Assembly: GCA_951406725.2 (NCBI GenBank) | Contig: OX597815.1 | Location: 154,566,001 to 154,630,000 of the forward strand | DNA length: 64,000 nucleotides | Direction of reading: 5' to 3' | Origin: Octopus vulgaris | Taxonomy: Eukaryota | Shown here: positions 1,068 through 64,000 of the stretch, one piece after another | How positions within the stretch are numbered: the first letter of the stretch is position 1 | How the letters are laid out: each line of letters starts with the position of its first letter | The notes under the pieces: generated by a model | Seen by the model: only the letters and a program-made list of their open reading frames with translations | Database searches by the model: none | What the model was told of the DNA's origin: nothing | Position numbers and translations under genes: made by a program

Positions 1068-2484
1068 TTTTTTTCTTCTTTCAAATTTGCTTCCATTTCT
1101 TACCGAGTGTCTTCCCGACTCCTAGGGCAAAGAAACTCATAGTATACATTGGTAGGACATTAAACTAAATTCAGTAGTTCGTTCATTTAAAAAAAAATTT
1201 TTTTTTTAAGTTAAATTAAAATACATGGGTAGTAATAGTTCTCACATCGACAATGCTCTTCTCAATACGTGTGATGTACCAGTTAAGACAATCTTTTGCA
1301 CTTCTTGCAGGGATGGTAAGCCAGGGATCATTCTCATATAATTTTCGGTTCCCTTCTTGATCATTCCTAGTGCTCCTACGATCACTGGTATTGTAACCGC
1401 CTTGAGATGCCACATTTTCTCAATTTCAATGTGTAGGTCTTTATATTTTCTGAGCTTGTCAAACTCTTTCGCCGAGATATTATGATCACAGGGGATGATC
1501 ATGTCGATCAATAAGCAAACTTTATTGTTTTGGTCTTTCACAACAATATCTGGTTTATTGGCTTTGATGGTTCGGTCTGTATGTACTGGAAAGTCCCACA
1601 GAATCGTTACATTTTCTCCTTCAGTTACAGCTTCAGGGTGGTGATTGTACCACTGGTCGGCAGTTTTAATATTGTAATGCCGACTTATTAGCCAGTGTAG
1701 ATATTGGCCAACTCTGTCATGTCTTAATTTATACTCCACTGGTGCTAAGACTTTACATCCAGAGATTAGGTGGTCCACTGTTTCAATCATGTCGTTGCAG
1801 AATCGGCATTTTGGATGGCTCCATTTTTTATCACATTGGCCTGGTAGTTCCGGGTTAATAGGCTTTGATCTTGAGCAGCCAGGATGAAACCTTCGCTCTC
1901 TGCTTTTAGCCCTGAGCTCCGTAGCCACTGATGGGTTTGCTTCTGGTCAACATCAGCTTGTTTGCTACGGGCCACATATTTGCCGTGCAGAGGTTTCTCC
2001 TCCCACCTATCAGCCAATTGCTCGTGCGCTGTTTTCGTTGCCATTATTTTCACCTTCTTTGCAACAATAGTTGCCGTACTTCCCTCGGGTTGTTCAGTTT
2101 GGGTATCCTGCACGAGATGAATAGCAAATTTTTTGCTTTCCTTTATGATAGAATGAAACTTCTTTCGTCTATCGTGATTTTCCACGAGCCTTAGCATCCA
2201 GTCATTCGTTATTTCGAGATATTTGGCCAGTTCAATTGTGGTTGTTTTGTAAGCTAGTTCAAATTGGATCAGGCCTCGACCTCCTTGGGCTCTGGGAAGG
2301 TAAAGGCGATCTACGTCTGACTTTGGGTGGTGCATCCTATTACAACTCAGCAGCTTGCGTATTTTCCTATCTATATTCTTTACTTCACTCATATTCCAGT
2401 TCAACACATTGTAGCTCTAAGTAACAACTGGAACTGCTAAGGAATTTATAGCTAACAACTTGTTACGTGCATTTAGTTCAGATT

Positions 2485-5172: not shown

Positions 5173-5392
5173 TTACTCTTTTACTCTTTTACTCTTTTAC
5201 TTGTTTCAGTCACTTGACTGCGGCCATGCTGGAGCATCGCCTTTAGTCGAGCAAATCGACCCCAGGACTTATTCTTTGTAAGCCCAGTACTTATTCTATC
5301 GGTTGCTTTTGCCGAACCACTAAGTGACGGTGACGTAAACACACCACCACCAGTTGTCAAGCAATGCTAGGGGGACAAACACAGACACACAA

Positions 5393-5739: not shown

Positions 5740-6603
5740 TTAATACCTCTTTCGTGTTTGTTGTCCTACATCACTCACGAAGTAAATTTGGAGGAAGTAT
5801 AGTTGTTCATTTGTGGGTAACAGAGAAGCAATGAGATGATATACTTGCCCTTGAACTTTGAACGTTAGCATAAATTCATGTTCAACTATCTCCTTAGATG
5901 TACCAAACGATGTCATTCGAAATGCAGAGTTGCATTGTCTGATATTGTTCAGAAAATCATTTGACTGGATGAAAGTGCCTTCTAGAAGATCTACAAGAGG
6001 TTGAGGAGGAGCTAGATATGCTGGCAATCTTACTTTACCACCTGAGCAGCGCATGCCATTAGTTTCATTTGGAAAGTTTAGGAAAGTCTCATCTCCCTCC
6101 TGTATTAAGACTTCATCTAATGTGCTGCAGCATGCGTTTGATGATGTTGAGAAAGTTTCACCTCGGTTCTGTCTTGAAACCCAATTTTATGTGTTACAGC
6201 ATGCGTTTATTAATCTTGTGAAAGTCTAATCGCCCATCTCTCTTGAGACTATTTGATGGGCTGTAGCATATGTTTGCTGATCGTGAGAAAGTCTCATCTC
6301 CCTTCTCACTTGAGACACCATTTGAGGTGCTGCTGCATGTACTTGCTGATCTTGAGAAAGTCTCATCTTCCTTCTCTCTTGAGACTGCCTTTGACGTGCT
6401 GCAGCATGCGTTTGCTGATTTTGTGAAAGTCTCATCTCCCTTCTCTCTTGAGACTCCATTGGATGTGCTGTAGCTTGCGTTTGCTGATCTTGAGAAAGTC
6501 TCATCTCCTTTCCTTTTTGAGACCCTCGCCTGCGGTTTTCTACAATTCTCCTTGCTTTATTGTTGTTTCTGGAGATATCATATCTTTTCTTTGGAGGCAT
6601 CAT
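5740..6603 (-). pseudogene. Helitron RepHel N-terminal coding remnant with ~23-aa (69-bp) tandem repeats
   Basis: ORF 6226-6603 repeats MRLSQDQQTxAxAxxxxSQERRE about 4 times; ORF 5740-6054 has conserved Helitron motifs; stops and frameshifts lie between them. Confidence 0.75.
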
Positions 6604-6659: not shown

Positions 6660-7058
6660 TGTGTGGTAAGTAGCTTGTTTACCAACCACATGGTTCCGGG
6701 TTCAGTCCCACTGCGTGGCACCTTGGGCAAGTGTCTTCTACTATAGCCTCGGGCCGACCAAAGCCTTGTGAGTGGATTCGGTATACGGAAACTGAAAGAA
6801 TCCCGTCGTATATATGTATATATATATGTGCGTGTGTGTGTTTGTGTGTCTGTGTTTGTCCCCCTAGCATTGCTTGACAACCGATGCTGGTGTGCTTATG
6901 TCCCCGTTACTTAGCGGTTCGGCCAAAGTGACCGATTGAATAAGTACTGGGCTTACGAAAGAATAAGTCCCGGGGTCGAGTTGCTAGATTAAAGGCGGTG
7001 CTCCAGCATGGCCGCAGTCAAATGACTGAAACAAGTAAAAGAGTAAAGAGTAAAGAGA
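6660..7058 (+). mobile_element. Near full-length tRNA-derived SINE family A
   Basis: A-box-like gtgtggtaag, B-box-like ggttcagtccc, ccttgggcaagt core, internal microsatellite, (agtaaag)n tail; many dispersed copies in the window. Confidence 0.85.
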
Positions 7059-7660
7059 GTTGTATCTATGTAGTATGTCTTTATTTTTGTATGCACTATA
7101 AATTAACCAAATATAAGCAAATTAACCAAATAGGCAACCTTGCAATTGCTGCGATAATTAACTCGTAACTGAATGGTAAATGTGCCTTATTATATACCTT
7201 GGACCTGTTACCTCATCGTTTTTTGTCAGGAGTTTCACCTCCAGCCGTTCGTTATGCCAGCCAACAACCATAAACTGCCACACCATTCCCCTGTCGTGGC
7301 CGTAAAGACGGAAAGTTGCCGATGTGTATTGTTGTTCATATTAGTGTATAAATAATTCATTTATTTCAAATACAATATAAATAAGATTATCTTAGTGTTA
7401 TTACATTAGAATTAAAAGTGAATGAATAGAAGTGAAACAATATTATAGTCTTATCAAAGGCGAAAGAATAAATAAAATTTAAACAAACATTATTGTACCG
7501 CCGAAAAAAAATCAGAAGGATCGTGTAGGGAGGGGTTTACGACCCTTTATATGGGCAAGGGCCAAAATCTGACCCTCTAGAACCTTCCCCAAGAAATTAA
7601 AAATTGTTCCTGCCAAATTTGGTACAGACTAAGCTAGCGGTTTCGCCGTACATAGAGGAA

Positions 7661-11704: not shown

Positions 11705-11929
11705 ACGTGTTTGTGTTTGCGCCCCACTATCGCTTGACACCGATGTTGGTGCATTTACGTCCCCGTAACATAGCGGTTCGACAAAAGAGACAGATAGAAT
11801 AAGTACTAGGCTTACAAGGAATAAATCCTGGGGTCGATTCTTTCGACTAAAGGCGGTGCTCCAGCATAGTCTCAGTCAAATGACAAGCAAGTACAAGAAT
11901 AAAGGAATATAAGTATATATATATGTATG

Positions 11930-11981
<52 letters not shown>

Positions 11982-12240
11982 TCAATGTGTGTGTGTCTTT
12001 GTATCTGTGCTTCTCCCCCAGTACCCCTTGGCAGCCGGTGTTGGTGTGTTTTCCAGCCCCGTAACTTAGCGGCTCGGCAAAAGACACTGACAGAATATGT
12101 ACTAGGCTTAACAAAATCATAAATGCTGGAGTCATTTCATTCGACTAAAATTGATTCAAGGCCGTGCTTCCAGGATGGCCGCAATCTAGAGACTGAAACA
12201 AATAAAAGATAAAAAGATAAAAGATAAAAGATAAAAAGAT
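11705..12240 (+). mobile_element. Two tandem 3' halves of SINE family A separated by (TA)n
   Basis: Repeated cttagcggttcggcaaaaga..agaataagtactaggctt..tgactgaaacaa blocks; (gataaaa)n tail. Confidence 0.75.
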
Positions 12241-16399: not shown

Positions 16400-17750
16400 T
16401 TTTAAAGATATTTTGATTGACGTCTACTATTCCGTAAAGTGTTTTTTAAATCAGATTTTACACTTAGGCGCTTTGTAGGAGTATAATTAAGTTCGGTTTT
16501 ATGGCGTGAAAAATGTTGGTTATTCCAGCACTGTATGGTTAACAAACGGAATCGTGTTTTCATTAACTTTTTCCTTGGGTGTCCATAGATGGGTGATTTC
16601 AGTTTCATCGCCGTTTTAATTTCCTCATTAATTAATCCTAAGGGGTATTTCTGCATAGGAAAAAGACCTTTGAGTTCGTTGAGACGTATTTTGGGGGTCA
16701 CTAATAGCACACATGCGTCTTTCCAGGCTGCATGGGATGATTCTTTTGATGTGTGATGAGTAGAAATTTAAATACTGGTGTGTGTCACTTATTTTGTAAA
16801 ATATATCTGTTGTGACTGTGTAGCTCTGTATTTTTAGGTGGATATCCAGGAAAGGTAATTCATTGCAACTAGATTCTGTCGTGAATTTGATGGGTGAAAT
16901 GTGTTCAGTATATTGATAAATATACTTAGATCTTCATTCTATCTCTCTCAAAAAATGAAGCAATCATCAAGGAAGCGTTTCCACTTTTTTCCATAAATGT
17001 TTTAATTTTCCTTGACTTTTGACTGTACATTCACATCCACTGGGCTGCTGAACTTTATAACAGTGTAAGACTTTTGTTCTGTATCCCACAGAACAATATC
17101 AGATCTGTTATGTTTCCAACGAATTGATGATTTTATTGGGATGTTTCACCAGTATTCTTTGTTTTTAAAGGTGTGAGTACTTGTTGGTGTTGGTATGCCT
17201 TTGATGTATTAGTCAGGACAGTCTTTCCTGTGGATAGCATTTTAGATAGATTTTTACGACAATATCATGCCTTAAGGAGGGGTGATAACTCGAAGACATT
17301 TTAGGGCAGTTGTTGATGATTTGGGTGATATCTTTTCGCACTGGTATAGCAGAGCCAACATTATTATCACAATATGGAGATCTGGTGGTATCTGTGTTCC
17401 TCTTGTTGATTTGGCAGTTATCTCCTGTTCCAGGATAGTGAAGGCATATCCTTATAGTAAGGATGTAATGTATCTATCACAGATCCAGGAGAGGCTACTC
17501 TACATGTAAATTCTATTATTGCCCTCTAGCTTACGGGATATGTACTCATGTACTGTGTTTTGTTGGTATGATGTCTGCTTCTTCCCCAAACTTCTGTTTA
17601 GGTAGGTGAATCCAACTTTGTTTGTGTCACATGACAGAGTTGTATTCTCTGAATAGTTGCACAGTAGATTTTCTCCAACTCTGAAGATGCTGCTCTCACT
17701 TTTGAGTGTGCATAGAATATATTCCTTTTTTTACTGCCCAGCAGGTGTTG
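16400..17750 (-). mobile_element. Decayed Penelope-like element RT/thumb
   Basis: Minus strand WKRFLDDCFIF, FLDIHL..TDIFYK..DTHQYLNF, KYPLGLINEEI; same family as 27305-28260. Confidence 0.75.
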
Positions 17751-20664: not shown

Positions 20665-20765
20665 GCAAGATGGCGATCTGTCAGAATCGTTACTAAGCCG
20701 GGCAGAATGCTTAGCGGCATTTCATCCATTTTTATGTTTTGAATTCAAATTCCGCCGAGGTCAAC
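20665..20765 (+). mobile_element. Truncated SINE family C head
   Basis: Matches 46624-46836 up to ttccgccgaggtcaact, then joins the LINE directly. Confidence 0.65.
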
Positions 20766-22870
20766 TATTTTCGTATTTTTCTGTCAAGATTACATATTTC
20801 AGCAATTGACCAGTTAACGATATTGAAACTGTAAGTCACGACTGGTATGGCTAATGCATTGATCGCTTCGATCCTGTTTCTCGCATTCAGCTCTGTCTTG
20901 AGTATTGCTCTTACTCTGCGATAACATTCTCTCCTGATCCTTTCCTTCATCTCTGAATGCCTTATTCCGTCTCCTTCAATTACCCCTAGATACTTGTAGT
21001 TCTCCGCTGGGTCTAATTCTTTTATGACATTCTGCTGGTCAAGGTTAACGTTAGATGTTTCTGTCATTTTTCCTTTGATAAAGGTAGCTTTTGCACACTT
21101 ATCGAGGCCAAATTGCATTCTGATGTCATCACTGAATTGTTTGACAATCGCTAGTAAGCCCTTGAGTTGTTGGTCATTTTTTGCAAAGAGCTTTAAATCA
21201 TCCATGTAAATGAGATGATTTATATTTTTATCAGACATTTTATATCCGTACTGCGCGTCATTGAGCAGTTTTGAGAGAGGTATTAAGGCTAAACAGAAGA
21301 GGAGTGGTGATAGTGAGTCACTCTGGAAAATGCCACATGGAACTTTTACATCACCAGCATTTAGAGATTCATTGTCACTGTTCAAAGTTAGTGTGGTTCT
21401 CCATGATCTCATACTTACAGACAGAAAGTTTCGCAGAGTAGGTGGTATCTTATACATTTCTAGGCATTTCTTAATCCAGCTATATGGTAGGCTATCAAAT
21501 GCCTTTTTATAGTCTATCCAGGCTATTGATAAGTTTTTGGGTCGTTTGTGACAATCTTGTAAGATCATCTTATTGATGAGTAGTTGATCTTTACAACCGT
21601 AGGATCCACATTTACATCCTTTCTGTTCATTAGGGAATATGCTGCTGTCTGTCAAAAAACTATAGGTATATTCCGTCTGGACAGATGTTAGTGTTTTATA
21701 CATAGTTGTTAAGCAGGTTATGGGTCTATAGTTTTTTGGTTCATTTGTTTCTTCACTTTTTGGAAGCAGGAATGTTAACCCATTTACTAGCCAAGGAGGC
21801 ATCCTACTAGGGTGTTGCAAAACATCATTGTAAAGTTCTGTTAGCAGTTCATGGCTCTCTGGGAAGGCATTCAACCAAAAGTTAGGGATTTTATCCTTTC
21901 CTGGAGACTTCCACTTGCTTGACCTCCTGAGAGCAGATCTTATATCTTCTACCTTGACACCCTCCCACTTTTGCTCTTCTAAGGAGTCCAGTTCTTTAGA
22001 TATTCTATCATTCCAGGGGGCCTTTTCGCTGTGTGATTTTTCTTCTTCCCAAAGTTTATTCCAAAATCCCTGCACTTCTTCTTTTGATGCTACAGACTTT
22101 ACAGTAACTGGTGTTTTTCCTATCTTCCTGTAAAAATTTTTGGGGTTATTTTTGAACATGTTGTTGTCCCTGAAGAATCTAACATGCTTTTCATACCTCG
22201 CTATGCGGGCAGCTTTAGCAGATACCTTTTGCTTGATGGTTTCTATGGTGGCATCAATATCAAGTATAGTTTTCATATTATATTTTTTCATTAGTTTTTG
22301 GGTTTTTGTAGGTTTGGTAGTCTTATGAACCTTAAGGTTTTTCAAATATTCAATGTCAGATCTAAATAGTTTAATTTGTTGTTGCAAACGCTCTTGCCAA
22401 GAAGGCTTTTTGTGGAAATGTTGCCGTTTTCTAATCTTTTCACCACATAGGATCGTTGAGATTTTCGCGGATGCATAGTATAGGTGGTTGAGATCTGTGA
22501 TATCAACATCATTAGCTGAAATTATATCCTTAAGTGCAAGCCGGGTTTTACCAATTATTTTCATGTTTTGGTTAGAGTTGCGGATTTTAGGTAGTGTATC
22601 ACGTTCATCCATACTGGTTTCTTTAATTTTCAGCCATTCAATCATGATTTGACTTTTTAGCTCATGTAGTTCTGTCGGGTCAACATTTGTGTGACTTTCT
22701 TCATCTATTTGATGTTCATCTGTCTTAGTGTTTATATTTGGTTCAGGGAGTATTTCACTTTGCCTATCACTTATACCAACTCTTTCAATCCTTACTTCGT
22801 TTTTATCAGCTCTGGGCTGGTCTATAATTATTTCCTCTGTATTATCTTCTTTAGCTGCAGCTTCGTTCAT
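20765..22870 (-). CDS. Non-LTR retrotransposon reverse transcriptase (R4/Dong clade), 701-aa open frame lacking the C-terminal endonuclease
   Basis: KSPGKDKIPNFWL, NYRPITCLTTMYK, EQKGC, IDYKKAFDS, GIFQSDSLSPLLF, YMDDLKLF, FGLDKC, YKYLG. Confidence 0.9.
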   Translation of the reverse strand: MNEAAAKEDNTEEIIIDQPRADKNEVRIERVGISDRQSEILPEPNINTKTDEHQIDEESHTNVDPTELHELKSQIMIEWLKIKETSMDERDTLPKIRNSNQNMKIIGKTRLALKDIISANDVDITDLNHLYYASAKISTILCGEKIRKRQHFHKKPSWQERLQQQIKLFRSDIEYLKNLKVHKTTKPTKTQKLMKKYNMKTILDIDATIETIKQKVSAKAARIARYEKHVRFFRDNNMFKNNPKNFYRKIGKTPVTVKSVASKEEVQGFWNKLWEEEKSHSEKAPWNDRISKELDSLEEQKWEGVKVEDIRSALRRSSKWKSPGKDKIPNFWLNAFPESHELLTELYNDVLQHPSRMPPWLVNGLTFLLPKSEETNEPKNYRPITCLTTMYKTLTSVQTEYTYSFLTDSSIFPNEQKGCKCGSYGCKDQLLINKMILQDCHKRPKNLSIAWIDYKKAFDSLPYSWIKKCLEMYKIPPTLRNFLSVSMRSWRTTLTLNSDNESLNAGDVKVPCGIFQSDSLSPLLFCLALIPLSKLLNDAQYGYKMSDKNINHLIYMDDLKLFAKNDQQLKGLLAIVKQFSDDIRMQFGLDKCAKATFIKGKMTETSNVNLDQQNVIKELDPAENYKYLGVIEGDGIRHSEMKERIRRECYRRVRAILKTELNARNRIEAINALAIPVVTYSFNIVNWSIAEICNLDRKIRK

Positions 22871-23430
22871 TCTATCCGTTACTGCTTGTCTAACTTGATC
22901 AATCTCTACTTCAGTCAGTAAATTTTTTTATAATGTTTCTTCTGACGTTGGCAAGTTTGTTACTGTCTATGTAGGGTCTTACTTCAGGGTGTTTCTGTCT
23001 CCACTTTATGTAGGTTTGTATAGTGTTCGATTAATCTGTGGGGAAATATATGGCATGGTAGAAGGCCGCAAGAACTTCTTTATTATCTTCCCTAGTCCAT
23101 TTTTCCTTTATTTCTTTTGAGTGTTTGGTGACGAGCATGGATGGCCATCTGTTGGAATATTCCAGTTGCGGGGTACGTCCAGCTCTTGTGTGGTTCAATT
23201 TTCGGTTACGTGGTCTTTTGTAGTCCGCTCGCCGACCATCGCTGATTGTAGGTTGTTTTGTTGACATTGAAGCATGACGAGCTTCGACTCTTACATTAAG
23301 AGACGGATCTGTCAGTTTAGGATTCTCTGCACGTAAACATTGTTCGTAGCGAAGCTTCTTAAGGCTAGCAGATCTGTATTCGTCTGTATTTTTTTGTTGA
23401 TAGTTTTATCTCCGGGCATAGTTTTCCCTT
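20765..23430 (-). mobile_element. R4/Dong-clade LINE, 5' two-thirds (N-terminal Myb-like region and complete RT domain), 3'-truncated
   Basis: N-terminal ORF 23031-23267 (KWTREDNKEVLAAFY) continues past one stop and a frameshift into the 701-aa RT ORF. Confidence 0.9.
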
Positions 23431-26444: not shown

Positions 26445-28734
<2,290 letters not shown>

Positions 28735-28798
28735 TATATCAATTTGTGTGTTCCTTATCAAACTTCTACATACGTATATATTTATATATATATATATA

Positions 28799-28955
28799 TG
28801 TAGGTCCCGGGTTGAGTCGGGGTTAACCACAGTAAATAAGGTACTGAATACATAGCAGAGTAAATTAATTTATTTTATAGAAGGAGCTTCTACAGGACTA
28901 GAACTGTTTCATTCAAATGAAACAGTTCTAGTCCTGTAGAAGCTCCTTCTATAAA

Positions 28956-28961
<6 letters not shown>
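28799..28961 (-). mobile_element. Miniature fold-back element: 69-nt tail plus perfect 46-bp inverted repeat, flanked by (TA)n
   Basis: Arms 28868-28913 and 28916-28961, 2-nt loop; nearly identical to the terminus at 56611-56726. Confidence 0.9.
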
Positions 28962-28988
<27 letters not shown>

Positions 28989-33863: not shown

Positions 33864-34180
33864 TACCAGGCAGTGGATCTCATAAGCTTCTGATCCTAAC
33901 TGATTCGAAGTGTTATCATTTATATGTTTTGTTTTGAGGGAAAAGATGGGCTACAGTAAATATTCTGCTGAATACCGCAGATTTGCTTGCCACTTGGATG
34001 ACCATAACCAGTTGAACATGTCCCATAATAGCTGAAGATATGTGCATCTCTGAGCAGTATCATAGCCATGGATTGAGAGGGATTCTTTGAGGATTGAATA
34101 ATTCACCTCTGCAAATATAGGTGTTTCAGTCATCATGCTTAAACAACCCTTATTCAGTGAAACTTTGAGCGGGATGGGAT
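33864..34180 (+). repeat. Partial diverged copy of the 555-bp unclassified element
   Basis: taccaggcagtgg..agcttctgatcctaactgatt..aaagatgggctacag.. matches 58440-58994. Confidence 0.8.
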
Positions 34181-45200: not shown

Positions 45201-45396
45201 ATCATACTACTCGAAAACCCCAGAATAAGCACCAGGAACTTGACGGAACTGATGCCAGCTCCAGTATAATGACTGAACCTAGCACCTTTGGCTTATTTCT
45301 CCTTGTTATCGAAAAGGTCTCAAAATGACCGAAACCGGTACTGAAATATTCTTTATAAAATTATTTTAGCATTTTCTATATTGACTTGTTTTTTCA

Positions 45397-48040: not shown

Positions 48041-48830
48041 ACAGGGTTGGAAAAATAATGGAAACAACTAGCATCACAGCATCATAATTTTGAAAGATCT
48101 ATAAAACCGTCAAAAGCTTGTTTATTTTTATGGTTTTTGATTTATTCTTTGCGTTACTTAATATGTTTTGCTAAACTTACTGTTTCTTTTCAGATATCAT
48201 CAGAAAAAAGGTAATTAAATTTCATTAAAATGACAGATCTATCGAACTTTCAAAACCGTCCCGTTACGTACTTATTTCGTTTGGTGTATCAAGAATTAAT
48301 GTTTCGAGAGTAATGACAGACTTTGAGAAAGGGAAAAACCTCGTCGTCGAGACAAAACTCCGGAAGAAAACCAAAACTCTGAGATAGGGACCGTCGGACT
48401 CTTACGCAAATTGTTAGAATAGATCACAAAATTACTGCAGTGCATACTGATATCCTCAAGAACCCACTTTTCACATAACTGTTTACCGGGAGTTGCACAA
48501 AGCCAGATTTCACAGGAGGGCTGCAAGCAGAAAACCACTAATATCAAAAGCAAACATTGCAAAGCATTTGGAGTGGAGTATAGACCTACAGAATTGGTCC
48601 CTAGAGACGCCGAAGAATGTTATTTTCTCAGACAAGTTATTCTTTACCTTATTTCCGACCACCAGTCGGAAATAAGGTAAATTATGGCGTCAGCCAAAAG
48701 AAGCATTTGAGAAACATCTAGAGAAGTTGAGCATCTTATCTGGCCACCACAGACCCCAGATTTCAATATTATTAAACATTTATGGTGCATTTTAGAAAAA
48801 AAGTAAGGTGTTGATATCCTCCACCATCAT
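48041..48830 (+). mobile_element. Decayed Tc1-family transposon, 5' end and deleted transposase
   Basis: ta|cagggttggaaaaataatggaaaca end; NSGRKPKL, RAASRKPLISKANIAKHLEW..NW..NVIFSD, WPPQTPDFNIIKHLW. Confidence 0.8.
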
Positions 48831-50227
48831 CACAATTTACATTTTATGATTTATGTGTTTAGTAACTTCAATTCAGTATGTTTTGTTGACTTTTAATTAT
48901 GTTTTCTAGTTCTTTAGGTGGTAATGTCTGTTTTGATTCTCATTTAATTTAATTAATCCATAGGTTTTCATAGCTGTAGGTCTGTCATTGTTTATTAAAT
49001 TTCATTTATTTTGGTGCAACGTGGGATGATTTATGTCGTTTACGTTGAAAGATTAATTTTTCGGAATGGTGGTATGTTATATTCTGGTCATATTTTCCAT
49101 AGTTAAGAGTAGTATATGTTTGGTAACTTGTTTAATTCTGTCATAAGTTTATTAATTTGAGTTTGCTACATTTATTTCGTTTCCGTTTAAAGTTCTTTAT
49201 AAGTCATTGTCCGTTTTGGTATATCTTTATTTTACTTAATTTAAGTTTAATACGTACATTTTCGTTACGGTCTATTCGTTTTGATTCTGTTATCGTTCAT
49301 TAAGTAGCAATGTCACCCGCACGTCCAACGTTGTTTGCTTAGTAAGCTTAAGCAGTTGTCAAAGCAAGAAACATATTGAGCTTATGCTTGGCCTCTCAAG
49401 CAGCATTTATACTTTTGGTACTGTTGACTCTATCATATTGAATGGTATTGCCCACATATCGAAACTATAATGATTTTCGATAAACTGCTGATGATGAAAC
49501 GTCTAGAAATTTTTATGTGTTTTTTATTTTGTTATTGTACATGTGTTTCATTGTAATCTTCATGTACCTTATATCCTCATCGTTTCAATGTCGTCCTCTG
49601 TAGTGATATTGGTTCTTGTTAGGTTCTTCTGTCATTTTAGATCGAACTGATACAATATCTTAGTTTACTCCGGAACTTAATTGATTACAGTGTAGTACTG
49701 ATAATCACCCTTTGTCGATTATGCATTGCTTGTAGTGTCTTAATATGCCTTAATTTGTGGAGATTTCATAAACTGCTTTTAAGGTTAGTGATTGCTTGCG
49801 TTCGTGTACTTCCATGCATGCGCACGTTTTAACATTTACAATATGTAGATCGTGTTTGATTGCAGGAATGAATCTGTTGGATTGTAAAGCTTTAATTAAG
49901 CAATTTAATTAAAGAATGACCTCATAATATCACTCTATGTGACATTAAATCTGATCCTAGTCTGTAACAGTGTTTTCGAAAGATATTTTCTCATAAAACA
50001 GTACACTTATTTTATTAAATGACTAAGTCAAACAGGAAGTTTAAATCACGTATCCCTGCATCTGAACCAGAAACCTCCAGTGAAAACTAACAACTGAGAA
50101 ATCTCTTCTAAAGACAAGCAGCGTCAGGCTGGGATTTCAAACCAGGGATTATATTGTGTCACTCCTGTTTCGTTTTCGGCGTACCTAAACATTAAGCCGT
50201 AGCAAGAGGGTTATCTTAGAAATATTC

Positions 50228-50385
50228 TTTTACTCTTTTACTTGTTTTAGTCATTTGACTGCGGCCATTCTAGAGTACCGCCTTTTAGTCGAGCAAATCG
50301 ACCCCAGGACTTATTCTTTGTAAGCCTAGTACTTATTCTATCGGTCTCTCTTGCCGTACCGCTAAGTTACGGGGACGTAAACACA
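50228..50385 (-). mobile_element. SINE family A, 3' fragment
   Basis: Matches 5173-5345. Confidence 0.8.
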
Positions 50386-51590
50386 CAAGAAATACCTGTT
50401 TTAAACTTTTTCCTACAGATAATAATTTCTTCCAGGGTATTATAAAGGAAATTTAAAGAAGAGAGAACAATAAACTCAATCGACTTTTTCAGTCTGGAAG
50501 GATGAAGGGTAAAGTTGACCTCGGCGGGGTTCGAAATCAGAACGTAATGAGCCGGAACAAAAACTGGATTTTATTTTTCAAGTTGCAATGAGAACCCTTC
50601 TCATTAGAAAATAGAAGATGAAGAGAGTAGAAAAGAAATCTATAGTCAAGATATATCCCGTAAATGACATATCGTAACAAAGAATGAGTTTATTTAATTT
50701 ATACCCAGCAATTGAGCTAAGCTACTTCCTTGATTTTGTTAATTATAATGATTTAATATAACGACAATAAACTTAATTTAGATATGAATTTCAATTACGT
50801 ATAGCCTGATGTTATCTTTCAAGTCTTATACTATTCTTCTGTTTTCGTAAAACACACAAATGATATAACAAAAAAAAAATTCCATATACATAGTAAATAA
50901 GAATAATTTTGAGCTATTTACATAAACACTGAAGAGGACTGAAGAACAATATATTGATAAAAATTAATTAATTATATTTGCAATATGTATTATGATAAAC
51001 AATGGAGATTAAGTAACGACAATCTGAAATAGTCTCAGATAAGTCCAAATGCACCACGGCATTACAGTAAATGTGGTTTATTATACAGTATGACATTATG
51101 TTTCAGAATAATAACAGGTGGTATGTTTGTGGTTTCGATGAAGGACCTTCTTCAAACAATGCATGAATGTATTTGAAAACTGCAAATATTGAATAGAGTG
51201 AAAAAATAACAATAGTTTCAAAACTTAGCAAAAGTATAGCAATTTTAAAGGGGAGATCCAAACGATGAGATCGTCCCCGGTGCTTAACTGGTACTTTGTC
51301 AATCTCAAAAGGGTGAAGGGAAAAGTTCTCGGCGATATTCGACCTCAGAACGTAAAGAGACGGAGGAAATTACGCTAAGCATTTTGTCTAGCGCGCTAAC
51401 GATTCAGCCAATTTAGTTATAGTAGTAGTGGTGGTGGTAATAGTAGTAGCAGTTCCTTTTATTAGACACAGAGGCATAGATGAGGGGGATGTCACAAAGA
51501 CAGACAATAATTTGTGCTGGGATTTACGTAAAGGATGGGGACTAAGAAATGGAAAAGTGGGTAAAATGCGATAATATATATATATGTATG

Positions 51591-51625
<35 letters not shown>

Positions 51626-51640
51626 TTATTATATAGAAGG

Positions 51641-51691
51641 AGCTTCTACAGGACTAGAACTGTTTCATTCAAGAGAAATCTTCAGGAAGCT
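51641..51691 (-). ncRNA. Minimal type-I hammerhead ribozyme, left-arm copy
   Basis: Exact reverse complement of 56589-56639. Confidence 0.8.
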
Positions 51692-52107
51692 AGTTAACAA
51701 GAATTGTATTGGCATTTATACATTTAGGCAGGTTTAAAGGGGTGGTGGTGGTGGACTTTTTTGGGGGTAGGCATAGCGCAAAATATCATACTTGGGGGAG
51801 TGGTCAAGGAGTCAGTGGTAAATTAGATAAAAGAATAAATAAAAGAATAAAAAAATAATAAAATAAAAAAATAAAAAAATTAAAAAATTAAAAAATAAAA
51901 TAAAAAAATAAAAAAATAAAAAATAAAAAAGAATAGAGTTTTAGGTAAATAAGGGGATTCTCACTTATACCTATACACACATGTATACATATATACACAC
52001 ACACACATATATACATACATACATACATACACACACACACATATACATATATATACACATACACATACATACACATATCTACACATACACATACATATAT
52101 ATATATC

Positions 52108-52141
<34 letters not shown>

Positions 52142-52783
52142 CATACACACACACATGCATACACATATACACACATGTATATATACACACACGACCACAC
52201 ATACATATACACACAGAAAAATATATATACATACACACACATACACATACACGCATACACACACATATCCACATACACACATGCACACACAACACCACAC
52301 ACAACACACAAGTCCCTATATACACATATATACACATACACACATATATATACATATATATACATATATATATATATACATATGTGTACCTATACATACC
52401 TACACATACACACATATATATACATACAAAAACAGACCCATTCCCTAATTTTAATTTTATTATCTTCATTTATTACTTTTGTTATCTTTGACCGCTGGTC
52501 ACAAGCATCTTGGCTATGACAGCAAGTCCATTAATCTTTCTACTTGAAAACAAGCACTCATTTACGCACGCACACTCATTAGCATGCACGCTCACTCATT
52601 CGTACCCTCATACACATACACGCACGCACGCGTTATATTCATACATACATACATCTACATACGTTCACGTATATACACATACGTACGCGTACCTACAGAT
52701 TCATGTCTACACCCTTAGAAGGCTAGTCTATACATATGCACCAATAAATATATATGCACACATACATATACACCTACATACAA

Positions 52784-52840
<57 letters not shown>

Positions 52841-53027
52841 AATATATATATACATATACACATACATACATACACATACACACATACACATACATACGTA
52901 TACATACATACATACATCCATACATCCATACATATATACACATACACACACCCACACGTATACATATACATACATATATATACGCGCATGCATACACACA
53001 CAAATACATACACATACACATATACAT

Positions 53028-53068
<41 letters not shown>

Positions 53069-53408
53069 TACATACATACACATACATACATATACATACA
53101 TACATATACAAATATACGCACACACATACATACACATATAAACATACACGCACATACACATGTACATGCGTACCCATACACACACACACACGCGCGCATC
53201 TATATATACACACAAGTACACACATGCGTAAAAGTATACATATATCTATGCTTACACATACACACACACACACGCGCCTCCTTATATTCATACTTACATG
53301 CATACTCAAAAAATAAGTAATAATAAATATTAATAAATATTAAGTATAAGTACGTGCAGTTACCTATTATACAGACGGATACATACATATAAACTTACAC
53401 ACACACAC

Positions 53409-53467
<59 letters not shown>

Positions 53468-53914
53468 TATACATATATATATATATATACATACCTACAC
53501 TTACGTACATATACATACACACATAGATAACTCTACGTGCCTACATATACATAAACACACGAGCGTACACGTATATGTACATATACACATACACATACAC
53601 ACACACATATACACATACATACACATACATACACACATATATACACACACACCCATACATATATATATATATATATATGTACATATATATATATATATAT
53701 ATATACATACACATATACACACACATATACTTGTGTGCAAACATACATACATACTCATACACGCACACACACTTACATATACATATATACACACACTTAC
53801 ACTCATATATACATACATATATACATACATACATACATATATGTATACATACACATATTCACACATACACATATATACATATATACACATACATATACAT
53901 TTACACATACATAC

Positions 53915-53956
<42 letters not shown>

Positions 53957-54290
53957 ATATACACACACAACTACATATACATACACATATATACCCACAC
54001 GTACACATATACACATATATACATATATACATACATATATATACACACATACACACACACACATATATATACATACATACACATACATATACATATATAT
54101 ACACACACATACACATACATATACATATATATACACACACATGTATGTGTGTGTATATATATGTATATGTATGTGTATGTGTATATATATATATATATGT
54201 GTGTATATATATGTATGTATATATGTATATATGTGTATATGTGTACGTGTGGGTATATATGTGTATGTATATGTATATGTGTGTGTATAT

Positions 54291-54344
<54 letters not shown>

Positions 54345-54543
54345 GTGTAAATGTATATGTATGTGTATATATGTATATATGTGTATGTGTGAATATGTGT
54401 ATGTATACTTATATGTATGTATGTATGTATATATGTATGTATATATATGTGTGTAAGTGTGTGTATATATGTATATGTAAGTGTGCGTGCGTGTATGAGT
54501 ATGTATGTATGTTTGCACACAAGTATATGTGTGTGTATATGTG

Positions 54544-54609
<66 letters not shown>

Positions 54610-54773
54610 GGTGTGTGTGTATATATGTGTGTATGTATGTGTATGTATATGTATATGTGTGTGTGTATGTGTATGTGTATATGTACATATACGTGTACGC
54701 TCGTGTGTTTATGTATATGTAGGCACGTAGAGTTATCTATGTGTGTATGTATATGTACATAAGTGTAGGTATG

Positions 54774-54834
<61 letters not shown>

Positions 54835-55209
54835 GTGTAAGTTTATATGTATGTATCCGTCTGTATAATAGGTAACTGCACGTACATATACTTAATATTT
54901 ATTAATATTTATTATTATTTATTTTTTGAGTATGCATGAATGAATAACTGCGCGTATATATATTTTATTATTTATTTTTTGAGTATGCATGTAAGTATGA
55001 ATATAAGGAGGCGCGTGTGTGTGTGTGTATGTGTAAGCATAGATATATGTATACTTTTACGCATGTGTGTACTTGTGTGTATATATGGATGCGCGCGTGT
55101 GTGTGTGTGTATGGGTACGCATGTACATGTGCATGTGCGTGTATGTGTATATGTGTATGTATGTGTGTGCGTATATTTGTATATGTATGTATATGTATGT
55201 ATGTGTATG

Positions 55210-55251
<42 letters not shown>

Positions 55252-55460
55252 CATATGTATATGTGTATGTGTATGTATTTGTGTGTGTATGCATGCGCGT
55301 ATATATATGTATGTATATGTATACGTGTGGGTGTGTGTATGTGTATATATGTATGTATGTATGGATGTATGGATGTATGTATGTATGTATACGTATGTAT
55401 GTGTATGTGTGTATGTGTATGTATGTATGTGTATATGTATATATATATATATATACATAC

Positions 55461-55494
<34 letters not shown>

Positions 55495-56588
55495 GTATGT
55501 ATTTGTATGTAGGTGTATATGTATGTGTGTATATATATTTATTGGTGCATATGTATAGACTAGCCTTCTAAGGGTGTAGACATGAATCTGTAGGTACGCG
55601 TACGTATGTGTATATACGTGAATGTATGTAGATGTATGTATGTATGAATATAACGCGTGCGTGCGTGTATGTGTATGAGGGTACGAATGAGTGAGCGTGC
55701 GTGCTAATGAGTGTGCGAGCGTGAATGAGTGCTTGTTTTCAAGTAGAAAGATTAATGGACTTGCTGTCATAGCCAAGATGCTTGTGACCAGCGGTCAAAG
55801 ATAACAAAAGTAATAAATGAAGATAATAAAATTAAAATTAGGGAATGGGTCTGTTTTTGTATGTATATATATGTGTGAATGTGTAGGTATGTATAGGTAC
55901 ACATATGTATATATATATATATGTATATATATGTATATATATGTGTGTATGTGTATATATGTGTATATAGGGACTTGTGTGTTGTGTGTGGTGTTGTGTG
56001 TGCATGTGTGTATGTGGATATGTGTGTGTATGCGTGTATGTGTATGTGTGTGTATGTATACATATATTTTCTGTGTGTATATGTATGTGTGGTCGTGTGT
56101 CTATATATACATGTGTGTATATGTGTATGCATGTGTGTGTGTCTATGTATATATATATATATGTATATATATAGATATATATATATGTATGTGTATGTGT
56201 AGATATGTGTATGTATGTGTATGTGTATATATATGTATATGTGTGTGTGTGTATGTATGTGTGTATGTATATGTGTGTGTGTGTGTGTATATATGTATAC
56301 ATGTGTGTATAGGTATAAGTGAGAATCCCCTTATTTACCTAAAACTCTATTCTTTTTTTATTTTTTTATTTTTTTATTTTTTTATTTTTTTATTTTATTT
56401 TTTTATTTTTTTATTTTATTATTTTTTTATTCTTTTATTTATTCTTTTATCTAATTTACCACTGACTCCTTGACCCCTCCCCCAAGTATGATATTTTGCG
56501 CTATGCCTACCCCGAAAAAAGTCCACCACCACCACCACCCCTTTAAACCTGCCTAAATGTATAAATGCCAATACAATTCTTGTTAACT

Positions 56589-56639
56589 AGCTTCCTGAAG
56601 ATTTCTCTTGAATGAAACAGTTCTAGTCCTGTAGAAGCT
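56589..56639 (+). ncRNA. Minimal type-I hammerhead ribozyme, right-arm copy
   Basis: agcttc-CTGAAGA-tttc tctt gaat-GAAA-cag ttctagtc ctg-TA-gaagct: 6-bp stem I, intact core, short stem II, stem III with CTAG palindrome in the loop, GUA cleavage triplet ending at 56633. Confidence 0.8.
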
Positions 56640-56919
56640 CCTTCTATATAATAAATTGATTTTACTCTGCTATGTATTGAGTACCTTATTTACTGTGGTT
56701 AACCCCGAATCAACCCGGGACCTACATATATATATATATATATATATAGCATATAATGATTGTGATATCATGGATATCACATAAAGGAATAAAAATTTCC
56801 AGAGTTAAGCAAGGGTACTCACAGATCCAGGATTACTCTGACAACCAAAGACATGAGCCCTCTTCCAATTGTTGCTCTTCAGTCTATAGGCTCTTGTTTA
56901 GAATGGGGCCATTTACTCT

Positions 56920-58439: not shown

Positions 58440-58994
58440 TGCCCTGATGCAGTACCAGGCAGTGGCTCTCATGGCTTCTGATCTTAACTGATTGGAAGTG
58501 TTATCATGTACATTGTTTTGTCTTGGTATAAAAGATGGGCTACAGCAAATATTCTGCTCAATACCACAGATTTGCTTGTCAGTTGTTTGACCATAACCAG
58601 TTGAGCATGTCCCTCAGTGTCTGACGATATGTGCATCTCTGATCACGAGCAGAAGTAGTGGGGGAGCATCATAGCCATGTGTTGAGAGGGATTCTTTGGG
58701 GTTTGAATAGTTCACCTCTGGAAACATGGGTGGTTCTTTCAACATCCTTAAACAACCCTTATTCAGGGACCGTTTGAGCGGGATGGGCTACTCAACTTGA
58801 AGAAAATTCTAACTGGGCCCCACCTGCAAGGTCATGTGCTGTTTATCTTGATATGAGATCACCATGTCGCGCCCATATGGTTGTGATGCATGTGCCTGGT
58901 GTACCTTTATCGGACGGGTAGTCATGATGGGTATATTGGGCTTCGTATATTTTACCCCAGTGTCACTTTGATGGCATGAACTGCTCTCTCACTC
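58440..58994 (+). repeat. 555-bp unclassified interspersed element, copy 1 (orientation inferred)
   Basis: tgccctgatgcagtaccagg...ctctctcactc followed by (AAT)n. Confidence 0.85.
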
Positions 58995-59006
58995 AATAAT
59001 AATAAT

Positions 59007-59063
<57 letters not shown>

Positions 59064-59618
59064 TGCCCTGATGCAGTACCAGGCAGTGGCTCTCGTGGCT
59101 TCTGATCCTAACTGATTGGAAGTGTTATCATGTACATTGTTTTGTCTTGGCATAAAAGATGGGCTACAGCAAATATTCTGCTCAATACCACAGATTTGCT
59201 CGTCAGTTGTTTGACCTTAACCAGTTAACAAAGTCCCTTAGTGGCTGACGATAGGCGCATCTCTGATCACAAGCAAAAGTAGTAGGGGAGCATCATAGCT
59301 ACGTGTTGAGAGGGATTGTTTGGGATTTGAATAATTCCCCTCTGGAAACATGGATGTTTTGTTCAACATCCTTAAACAACCTTTATTCAGGGACGTATTG
59401 CGAGGGACGGGTTACTCGATCATAAGAAAATTCTCACTGGGCACCACCTGCAAGGTCATGTGCTGTTTATCTTGATATGAAATCACCATGTCATGCACAG
59501 AAGGTTGTGATGCATGTGCCTAGTGTATCCTTATCAGACGGGTAGTCATGATGGGTATACTGGGTTTCGTATATTTTACCCCAGTTTCACTTTGATGGCA
59601 TGCACTGTTCTCTCACTC
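59064..59618 (+). repeat. 555-bp unclassified interspersed element, copy 2
   Basis: Collinear with copy 1, same ends, scattered substitutions. Confidence 0.85.
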
Positions 59619-62392: not shown

Positions 62393-64000
62393 TACTGGCG
62401 AAAATAAATTTAAGACCGATGATAAAAGTTCTATTTCTTACAAAATATTTTGTTACTAACTCCATACAAATTATTTTTATCTTTTACACCTTATGCAGAA
62501 TTTATTACGCTTTCGAACGATGCAGACAATAACTATTTTTTTACAACTTGAAGAATTCGAATGCTAAATTAATATAAACTTTTCAAGTTTACCGGCAAAA
62601 TTAGTTTAACACCGTATCATTATAATTTTATTTAAAGCTTAAGATGGTAGCAAAAAATGAGCAACAAGAACAAAATACATATTAGTAGTTTGTGCTGTAG
62701 CCTTTTTTCTTAATATCGGCTGAACAACGCCTCGGCATTGAATTCGCTAAGTGATTACAAAAGTCTATGGGAATGTTTTGCTATATATCATTGATATAAT
62801 CGAATAAATGTTTTAGATTAGATGTTTTTTTTTAGCATGAACTTTTTTGGAAACATAATTCCACAGGTTCTCGATCGGATTCAGGCCCAGGCTCTGGGGA
62901 GGCCATTCGATTACGTCAATTTTATGGTGATCAAAACAATTCCATAACCTTTTTGGCTTTGTGCACAGGACTATTGTCTTGCTAATAAATAGCCTCCAGA
63001 GGCATTTGGTGAGTCAAATATGGCACAACATTATCCTTTAGTATATACATATAACCTACACTATTTAGCTTTCCATCAACTTTAACTAGAGGGCCAACAC
63101 TAAAGCTACTAAATGCCGCCAACACTATCACAGTCCCTCCTCCGCTTGCGCCGTCGTTTTCATGTATTTCGGATGGAATTCCTTGGTTGGGCAACGTCTG
63201 ACGTATGTTTTACCATCTGATCAAAATATACAGAAGCGTGATTCGTCACTCCAAAGGACCCTGCACCAATCTTCGGCAGTCCATTGAGCATGGCTTTTTG
63301 CGAAATTAATGCGTTTGAGTCGATTTCTTTTGTATATTATTGGCTTTTTCCTAGCGATTCATCCATGCTCTCCAAATTCTCTCAAACGGTTGCGGATAGT
63401 TTGTGGTGTAAAAATAACATCGTTCTCGTTTACAAATGTCAACGGCTCTCAGCATTCGGTTGCCTTTCGAAAGTTGGTGGATTCGACTGTCCAACTACAC
63501 CGTTGTTTTTCTTGGGGCGCCAGTCCTTTGCCGATCTTCATATTGACCAGTCTCCGAGAATAACTTCCACGCTTGCATGCAAGCCATTTTACTGCACATT
63601 AGTTGCTTGCTGATGTTCGAAAAGGAAACTTTTTGCTGGTGGAGTAATACGATTTTTGCTCTCGTGATTGGACTGAGGCTACGTTGTTTTCCCATTATTA
63701 ATCAATTGTATAATAACGTTAAATTATAACACTATATAGTGCACTTAGTCTAGTTGTGTGACCATCCATTTTGGCAAACAAATTTGCGTACATATTACAT
63801 GATCTTAAACTAATTTGCCGGTAAATTTGAAACGTTTATATTAATTTAGCATTCGAATTCTTCAAGTTGTATAAAAATAGTTATTGTCTGCATCCCACAA
63901 AAGAGAAATAAATTCTGCATAAGGTGTAAAAGATAGAAATAATTTGTATGGAGTTAGTAATAAAAAATATGGTAACAAATAGATTTTTTATCATCGGTCT
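62393..64000 (-). mobile_element. Tc1-family transposon with long (~215-bp) TIRs and frameshifted transposase; right TIR runs off the window
   Basis: 62413-62608 is the reverse complement of 63803-64000; MGKQRSLSPITRAKIVLLHQQ..RTGAPRKTT, WCRVLWSDESRF, GPLVKVDGKLNS, QDNSPVH, EWPPQSPGLNPIENLW. Confidence 0.92.

Follow-up and report, generated by a model that had tools for sequence, protein, structure and literature searches.

A 163-base palindrome in the Octopus vulgaris genome is a probable Penelope-type fold-back insertion of a highly repeated family

A sequence of 163 bases at positions 28799-28961 of a 64,000-nucleotide stretch of the Octopus vulgaris genome (hereafter the window) is a real insertion, probably of a Penelope-type element by fold-back, in a layout of two head-to-head copies that is already known for Penelope-like elements (PLEs). 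With moderate confidence, we favor a reading in which this stump-sized hairpin insertion (the miniature) and a much longer palindrome at 51624-56726 (the giant) are independent, 5′-truncated insertions of one very high-copy hammerhead family. In both cases a Penelope-like reverse transcriptase (RT) and GIY-YIG endonuclease would have moved the element, the cDNA would have made a U-turn, and the outer end would have been set by the enzyme. The window is a segment of an animal genome rich in microsatellites and mobile elements, and the features used below are as follows:

26553-28769, + strand: older Neptune-like PLE of a family unrelated to that of the miniature, with RT and GIY-YIG relics at 27300-28257
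28771-28798: (AT)n target left of the miniature, which is also the 3′ flank of the older neighboring PLE
28799-28867, - strand: single-copy tail of the miniature (element 3′ end), joining (AT)n; equivalent to 56657-56726
28861-28872: 12-bp perfect AT-only dyad, a candidate nick or priming site
28868-28913, - strand: long-arm half of the miniature, with the predicted 3′ part of the hammerhead (GAAA, stem III, GUA, 3′ strand of stem I) and a spacer
28914-28915: loop of the miniature, where the sequence folds back; its template is element bases 56609-56610 (predicted hammerhead loop/stem II)
28916-28961, + strand: inverted, tail-less short arm of the miniature, 46 bp, ending at the family-wide endpoint
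28962-28988: (AT)n target right of the miniature
48643-48681: second non-microsatellite palindrome, 17-bp arms and 5-nt loop
51624-54142, - strand: inverted, tail-less short arm of the giant, 2519 bp, with a mirror hammerhead motif at 51641-51691
54143-54144: loop of the giant, 2 nt, with 38-bp perfect arms on each side
54145-56656, + strand: long arm of the giant, 2512 bp, mostly microsatellite, with no ORF relic
56589-56592: AGCT, recurrent fold-back center of other family copies, in the 5′ strand of stem I; loose ends lie before 56589
56657-56726, + strand: single-copy tail of the giant, 70 nt, then (AT)n

A best-palindrome search recovered the arms of the miniature as 46 perfect pairs out of 46 (28868-28913 with 28916-28961) around the 2-nt loop at 28914-28915, which is the fold that a preliminary description of this DNA had claimed. 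That description had also read 28799-28913 as a near-exact reverse complement of the end of the giant, and this was borne out: 28799-28922 aligns with 56726-56602, the right end of the giant, at 94.4% identity over 125 columns (E 7e-51), and over 56608-56726 the two copies differ in five alignment columns. The short arm of the miniature matches 56611-56656 at 45 of 46 positions and stops at the equivalent of 56656, the base at which the short arm of the giant ends (51624), so the claimed shared stop was found as well. The tail, put at about 69 nt in the earlier account, measures 69 nt in the miniature and 70 nt in the giant. As had been described, the two copies lie in opposite orientations, and (AT)n flanks both outer ends of each; the junction positions are ambiguous by 1-2 nt owing to AT microhomology with the target.

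The giant is built in the same way. Its center is the GT between 54142 and 54145, that is, it too has a 2-nt loop, and its arms, 2519 and 2512 bp long, are separated by 40 substitutions and 19 gaps (98.3% identity). Its body (54145-56440) amounts to some 2.3 kb of microsatellite, (TA) mixed with (TG), in which there are unique islands, such as 55520-55860, which may be the 3′ UTR of the family or captured host DNA. The 64-kb window holds 385 perfect palindromes with arms of at least 15 bp, and two of these are not microsatellites: the miniature and the one with 17-bp arms. The miniature and the giant are the only copies of their family in the window.

Part of 56445-56726 is present in 20 of the 24 public runs listed (11 studies, five organism labels); the listing included no run recorded as RNA. 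We aligned the assembled contigs of four of the 24 runs, X1, X10, X3 and X2 (three studies; organism labels A, A, C and B, respectively), and give values in this order. The contigs aligning to these 286 bases number 11,729, 2,532, 1,790 and 1,295, and the family is therefore highly repeated; its contigs reach at least into a T-rich tract before 56448. In all four runs, position 56656 was found joined to (AT)n, in 25 of 209, 12 of 92, 14 of 118 and 15 of 49 partly aligned contigs, with an agreement of 0.82-0.98, the unitigs being too short to tie this end to an inverted arm. The 24 loose-end rows listed show (AT)n joined to no further position on the downstream side of the hammerhead.

A third fold point emerged from the same contigs. 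It is centered on AGCT at 56589-92, the 5′ edge of the hammerhead, and among the rows listed it appears in three of the four runs: loose ends before 56589 were seen in 24, 10 and 5 contigs of X1, X10 and X2, with none among the X3 rows listed. These ends read as the mirror of 56593 onward and, judged by eye, match the expected mirror at 25 of 30 letters in X1, 11 of the nearest 13 in X10 and 10 of the nearest 10 in X2, with a mixed consensus in X10 (0.53) and X2 (0.68). In the X2 consensus, (AT)n is reached after as little as about 10 nt, so that some short arms may have a different endpoint and be much shorter. A fold at the AGCT hot spot gives 64-bp arms with an intact hammerhead motif on each strand; together with the 46 bp of the miniature and the roughly 2.5 kb of the giant, this makes at least three fold depths. 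Thus, the earlier proposal stood insofar as it paired a constant short-arm end with a variable fold depth, given the (AT)n joint of 56656 in all four runs and the third fold point in three of four among the rows listed. Its further claim, that the snapped-back cDNA is copied to a fixed stop, was not demonstrated, as a second target-primed RT start would leave the same end.

The larger group of loose ends, at 56529 (107, 24, 39 and 9 contigs), resembles the reference and reflects length variation of a CCA tract. No strand-changing joint was listed in the aligned contigs, and the miniature’s own junction is not among the rows listed. A single X1 contig joins 56650 head to tail with 56589; this would amount to a hammerhead unit of 62 nt repeated in tandem, as in retrozymes. 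Summed depth over 56605-54 exceeds that of the tail 2.85-, 2.17-, 1.29- and 2.04-fold, and that upstream of the hammerhead 1.6-, 1.3-, 1.14- and 5.14-fold. This excess, depth not being copy number, is weakly consistent with many short copies that have two arms and one tail; X3 fits the expectation poorly, with hardly any drop over the tail (1.29).

Searches further afield added little. A pattern scan of metagenome and viral contigs gave 0 matches. Matches to a second pattern, at three metagenome and three genome loci, were rejected, all six being chance matches of 21-22 nt with dissimilar flanks. Four exact motifs are absent from one supplementary file each of PMC8557442 and PMC13282606; external repeat libraries may hold the family. 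Our literature search, whose range left most subscription papers outside, found no paper on the family and none that counts fold points against a fixed end.

The alleles carried by the arms bear on how many templates each insertion had. We checked 12 variant sites, 10 of them within the arms of the giant, whose two arms agree at all eight family-polymorphic sites. At 56476 and 56514, the right arm of the giant alone carries a base missing from about 99% of family depth; since these one-arm bases are nearly absent from the family, they are best read as mutations after insertion. The arms of the miniature agree at both of their polymorphic sites. One position, 56649, separates the copies: the minor allele (19-38% of depth) is in both arms of the miniature and the major allele in both arms of the giant. 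Such agreement within each copy favors one template per insertion, although gene conversion, or two RNAs transcribed from a single locus, could produce it as well.

The 12-bp AT-only dyad at 28861-28872 has its center 1 nt away from the short-arm endpoint. Compared with local shuffles, this dyad has p = 0.004, for a feature noticed post hoc. The miniature keeps it whole; in the giant it is disrupted at 56658, by a base that is lacking in 98-100% of family depth.

A descriptor search placed a type I hammerhead motif at 56589-56639 (+) of the giant. The two descriptor matches in the window are both in the giant, at 56595 (+) and at its mirror, 51685 (-), and in 100 shuffled controls the loose form of the descriptor was matched in two and the strict form in none. 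The motif consists of a 6-bp stem I, a CUGAAGA core, a 3-bp stem II, GAAA, and a 4-bp stem III with an 8-nt loop; cleavage is predicted to follow GUA at 56633. In a minority of the contigs of the family (60, 43, 39 and 22 in X1, X10, X3 and X2), 56599 A>T gives the canonical CUGAUGA, and a 56622 T>A variant in family contigs creates a 6-nt palindrome in loop III; a palindrome in this loop is a trait of PLE hammerheads (PMC4209133). General RNA searches were silent. Rfam reported no hammerhead among the 150 of 244 window matches listed, whose top rows are microsatellite-driven miRNA models, and none among its four matches to 56540-56730; in free folding, the hammerhead does not stand out (z between 0.05 and -1.36). 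The catalytic fold lies 1.2 kcal/mol above the minimum free energy, and stem II closes with U-U in place of the usual G-C pair.

Compared with the hammerheads described by Cervera and de la Peña 2014, the motif shares the type I topology, the conserved core and an unpaired base 5′ of stem II, as well as a palindromic word in loop III (here 6 nt, in the 56622 variant). Unlike those in print, it has a stem III of 4 bp with an 8-nt loop, so that it may fold as a monomer, and a short, 3-bp stem II that lacks G10.1-C11.1. The same authors noted pairs of hammerheads on opposite strands 100-700 bp apart. With 56589-56639 and its mirror, the predicted ribozyme would sit in a terminal repeat, as in PLEs. 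In the miniature, each arm retains only the 3′ half of the core and the 5′ core is gone. The preliminary description had put the fold point in stem II with loss of the ribozyme, and its equivalent, 56609-10, indeed falls in the loop/stem II with the CUGAAGA half-core missing; with a 3′ half-core alone on each arm, the anatomy indicates that self-cleavage would not occur. The miniature is thus likely to be a dead stump, a ribozyme without its 5′ core.

A hammerhead, a (TA)n target, 5′ truncation, a head-to-head inverted copy and a one-sided tail form the published PLE signature. Craig et al. 2021 describe an inverted, 5′-truncated copy at the 5′ end, (TA)n targeting, and a tail of 30-40 bp, usually at one end, that they attribute to endonuclease resolution of an intermediate (PMC8557442). 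Arkhipova et al. 2013 report head-to-head inverted repeats with junction palindromes and proposed self-priming on the antisense strand (PMC3846280), and Goubert et al. 2022 give the same traits, with 5′ truncation at insertion as the norm (PMC8969392). In Octopus vulgaris, 190 PLE families together account for 6.83% of the genome (PMC13282606). In our family, an inverted, 5′-truncated copy adjoins the 5′ end in both window copies, and the further fold-backs at 56589 occur in three of four runs among the rows listed. The tail is one-sided in both copies, with the tail-less end in four of four runs, and its 69-70 nt exceed the published 30-40. Insertion into (TA)n applies to all four outer ends in the window and to the 56656 loose ends of all four runs; it is common to Neptune, Naiad and Hydra and does not separate these clades. 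Canonical hammerheads are missing from Naiads (PMC8557442), a point against placing this family there.

The coding evidence is silent. Neither copy has an RT or GIY-YIG ORF, which 5′ truncation could have removed. The 152 PLE-related proteins found with the endonuclease relic of the neighboring PLE gave nothing better than E 0.06 against 55500-56726 and the miniature; a short open frame in the tail reached only E 0.3-0.7, and Pfam returned no significant family for five window fragments. A direct, partial-tandem pLTR is absent from both copies, the one X1 contig with its 56650-to-56589 tandem joint aside. Head-to-tail tandem units with intact hammerheads, as in retrozymes, were not what we found, the copies being head to head and the miniature lacking the 5′ core; nor are there the equal terminal inverted repeats of a MITE or fold-back DNA transposon, as a tail of 69-70 nt lies outside the repeat on one side.

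From its sequence, the element appears to work like an EN+ PLE insertion. With the accounts of such insertions (PMC8557442, PMC3846280), it shares the head-to-head inverted copy at the 5′ end, the junction palindrome, the one-end tail, the (TA)n target, a hammerhead near the 3′ end and a high copy number. It differs from them in a tail of 69-70 rather than 30-40, the lack of a direct pLTR tandem in the two copies, a mirror that covers the whole insert with a 2-nt loop and extends over more than 2.5 kb in the giant, a microsatellite-rich body of 2.5 kb with no ORF, and a 4-bp stem III. Poseidon PAc of Anolis carolinensis (Frangieh et al. 2024, PMC11167929) likewise has two recurrent 3′ ends with the tail between them, downstream of a hammerhead, an AT-rich target, and a tail-less end at an ATT-containing site. 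The ORF of PAc starts in stem II and its tail is coding, whereas here the ATG beside stem II is closed after three further codons. Animal non-LTR retrozymes, which Li, Clavereau and Pollet 2026 tie to PLE ends (10.64898/2026.07.22.740005), are also non-coding, hammerhead-bearing and probably dependent on PLE proteins; they form head-to-tail tandem arrays, whereas the copies described here are head to head, and no ribozyme is left whole in the miniature.

Immediately to the left of the miniature, which was inserted into its (AT)n flank, lies the older PLE at 26553-28769. It has a CX2-5CxxC linker, typical of Neptune (PMC8557442), and shows no nucleotide match to the miniature/giant family. Its 3′ end (28470-28734) aligns with an inverted, tail-less copy at 26553-26797 at 84% identity over 230 positions; a tail of about 35 nt (28735-28769) is on the right side only and ends in CTAC before (AT)n, like the tail of the miniature. 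The short-arm end falls in an internal (AT)4 tract. As this mirror is decayed and asymmetric, it may stem from two events. A possible minimal hammerhead that the descriptor missed, with a palindromic stem III and a U3-A8-like core, lies at about 28640-28668. A third 3′-end fragment of the neighbor’s family lies at 45324-45393, with its tail-less end at the same position before (TA)n, and 16405-16989 (-) looks like a second PLE relic, covering the RT thumb region, with 42 alignments of PLE-related proteins.

Our preferred model runs as follows. The endonuclease would nick (TA)n, and the RT would copy the RNA from the far end of the tail. The RT would then stop, often at the hammerhead, and the 3′ end of the cDNA would turn back with 0-2 unpaired bases, giving a head-to-head mirror. 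The enzyme would fix the outer end of the mirror at the AT-only dyad, which lies 69-70 nt away from the 3′ end, in one of two ways that we hold to be about equally probable: the endonuclease nicks the dyad as a mimic of the target in the new duplex, or the other target strand primes a second cDNA at the dyad and the turned-back end pairs with it. Last, the outer end would be joined to (AT)n through AT microhomology. Both outer ends of each copy, the tail end and 56656, read like cDNA primed from (AT)n. The fold loops measure 2, 2 and 0 nt, two of them at sites without a useful palindrome, and a U-turn is therefore the simplest account; because a 2-nt loop with 1 nt of microhomology makes no thermodynamic hairpin, we infer that the turn must be held by the enzyme. 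PAc nicks its own sequence at ATT on both strands and extends both, its two RT start sites defining the tail; for PLE tails, the origin with experimental support is a second RT start primed by the target (PMC11167929). In favor of the model, an older PLE with RT and GIY-YIG relics shows a similar geometry in the same window; against it stand the lack of an RT or endonuclease relic in the family, the 69-70-nt tail, the hammerhead’s silence in Rfam, and the X2 and X3 contig data. A bolder version, possible but doubtful, would have the hairpin resolved by the element’s own endonuclease cutting the AT-dyad mimic, with no second-strand priming, and the AGCT copies (about 200 bp, with a double hammerhead) forming a self-propagating palindromic subfamily. 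If this were true, AGCT-centered copies would be the non-autonomous, head-to-head counterpart of retrozymes.

The U-turn could be dispensed with if cDNAs primed from both target strands, at the tail end and at 56656, were joined head to head at their 3′ ends by microhomology. Such pure twin priming, which we consider unlikely, would suit the outer ends of both copies, each of which reads as (AT)n-primed cDNA, and the self-complementary AGCT, which could anneal two identical cDNA ends. PAc, for which a dimer is predicted, extends both strands and has two start sites (PMC11167929), and the neighboring PLE is asymmetric, with a mirror of only about 250 bp plus a (CTT)n tract. However, two independently truncated cDNAs should usually leave unequal arms, whereas the giant and the miniature are symmetric to 2 nt where no useful palindrome exists and have concordant arm alleles within each copy. 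Fold depth might instead record decay and not integration, the miniature being a long palindromic insertion collapsed by central deletion, which seems to us quite unlikely. Long near-perfect palindromes are unstable (PMC7999016), and the constant outer ends would need nothing further. Since each arm carries AGCT in the same orientation, slippage between the two would probably yield the 56589 hot spot too, which is therefore no evidence against collapse. The miniature did not come from this giant, given the five differing columns and the giant’s base at 56658 that nearly all family depth lacks, and the giant has kept its symmetric center with a 2-nt loop despite 1.7% arm divergence. Central deletions usually leave asymmetry, whereas the miniature’s junction has 1 nt of microhomology and is perfectly symmetric. 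In the accessible part of PMC7999016, we found no passage on the symmetry of central deletions. Furthermore, PLEs are as a rule already 5′-truncated when they insert (PMC8969392).

It is very unlikely that the insertions are not PLE-driven at all and represent a DNA transposon of the fold-back or MITE-like kind, or else a retrozyme mobilized by a different RT. The lack of a coding relic, the inverted repeats and the one contig with a 56650-to-56589 head-to-tail joint would fit. Against this, the ends are unequal, with a one-sided tail, depth varies at the center and not at the ends, and there is a hammerhead, all unlike a TIR element; animal retrozymes are tandem arrays and have themselves been proposed to be PLE derivatives (10.64898/2026.07.22.740005). 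We also weighed a fold-back artefact of sequencing or assembly, which is hardly credible. Library chimeras can make palindromes, and the miniature’s junction is not among the contig rows listed, but the arms of the giant differ by 40 substitutions and 19 gaps, and the endpoint and fold-back junctions recur across contigs of four runs, three studies and three organism labels.

Elsewhere in the window lie unrelated repeats. A decayed element at 62413-64000, whose inverted repeats of some 197 bp are 91% identical, is cut by the window end; from its translation, we take it to be Tc1/mariner-like. Open frames at 20765-22927 (-) and 1242-2416 (-), one of 720 aa and the others fragments, are presumably of RTE-like LINEs. 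The window also holds a direct repeat of about 555 bp at 90% identity (58440-59618) with a related dispersed copy at 33864-34178, a tandem array with a 69-bp period (6082-6523), and a dispersed short repeat family (5175-5392, 6842-7060, 11707-12228 and 50223-50389).

The structure itself was already known, and the miniature is an unusually clean example of it. A fixed outer end combined with a variable fold point offers a natural test of how the head-to-head layout of PLEs arises. Craig et al. 2021 name the origin of inverted, tailed insertions as the next task for an in vitro system (PMC8557442); Frangieh et al. 2024 explain the tail, and the accessible main text gives no model for the inverted copy (PMC11167929). 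A young, very abundant family with a base-exact end, polymorphic sites and folds from 46 bp to 2.5 kb means that one assembly could separate fold-back, twin priming and collapse. More broadly, the family would continually supply an animal genome with long perfect palindromes.
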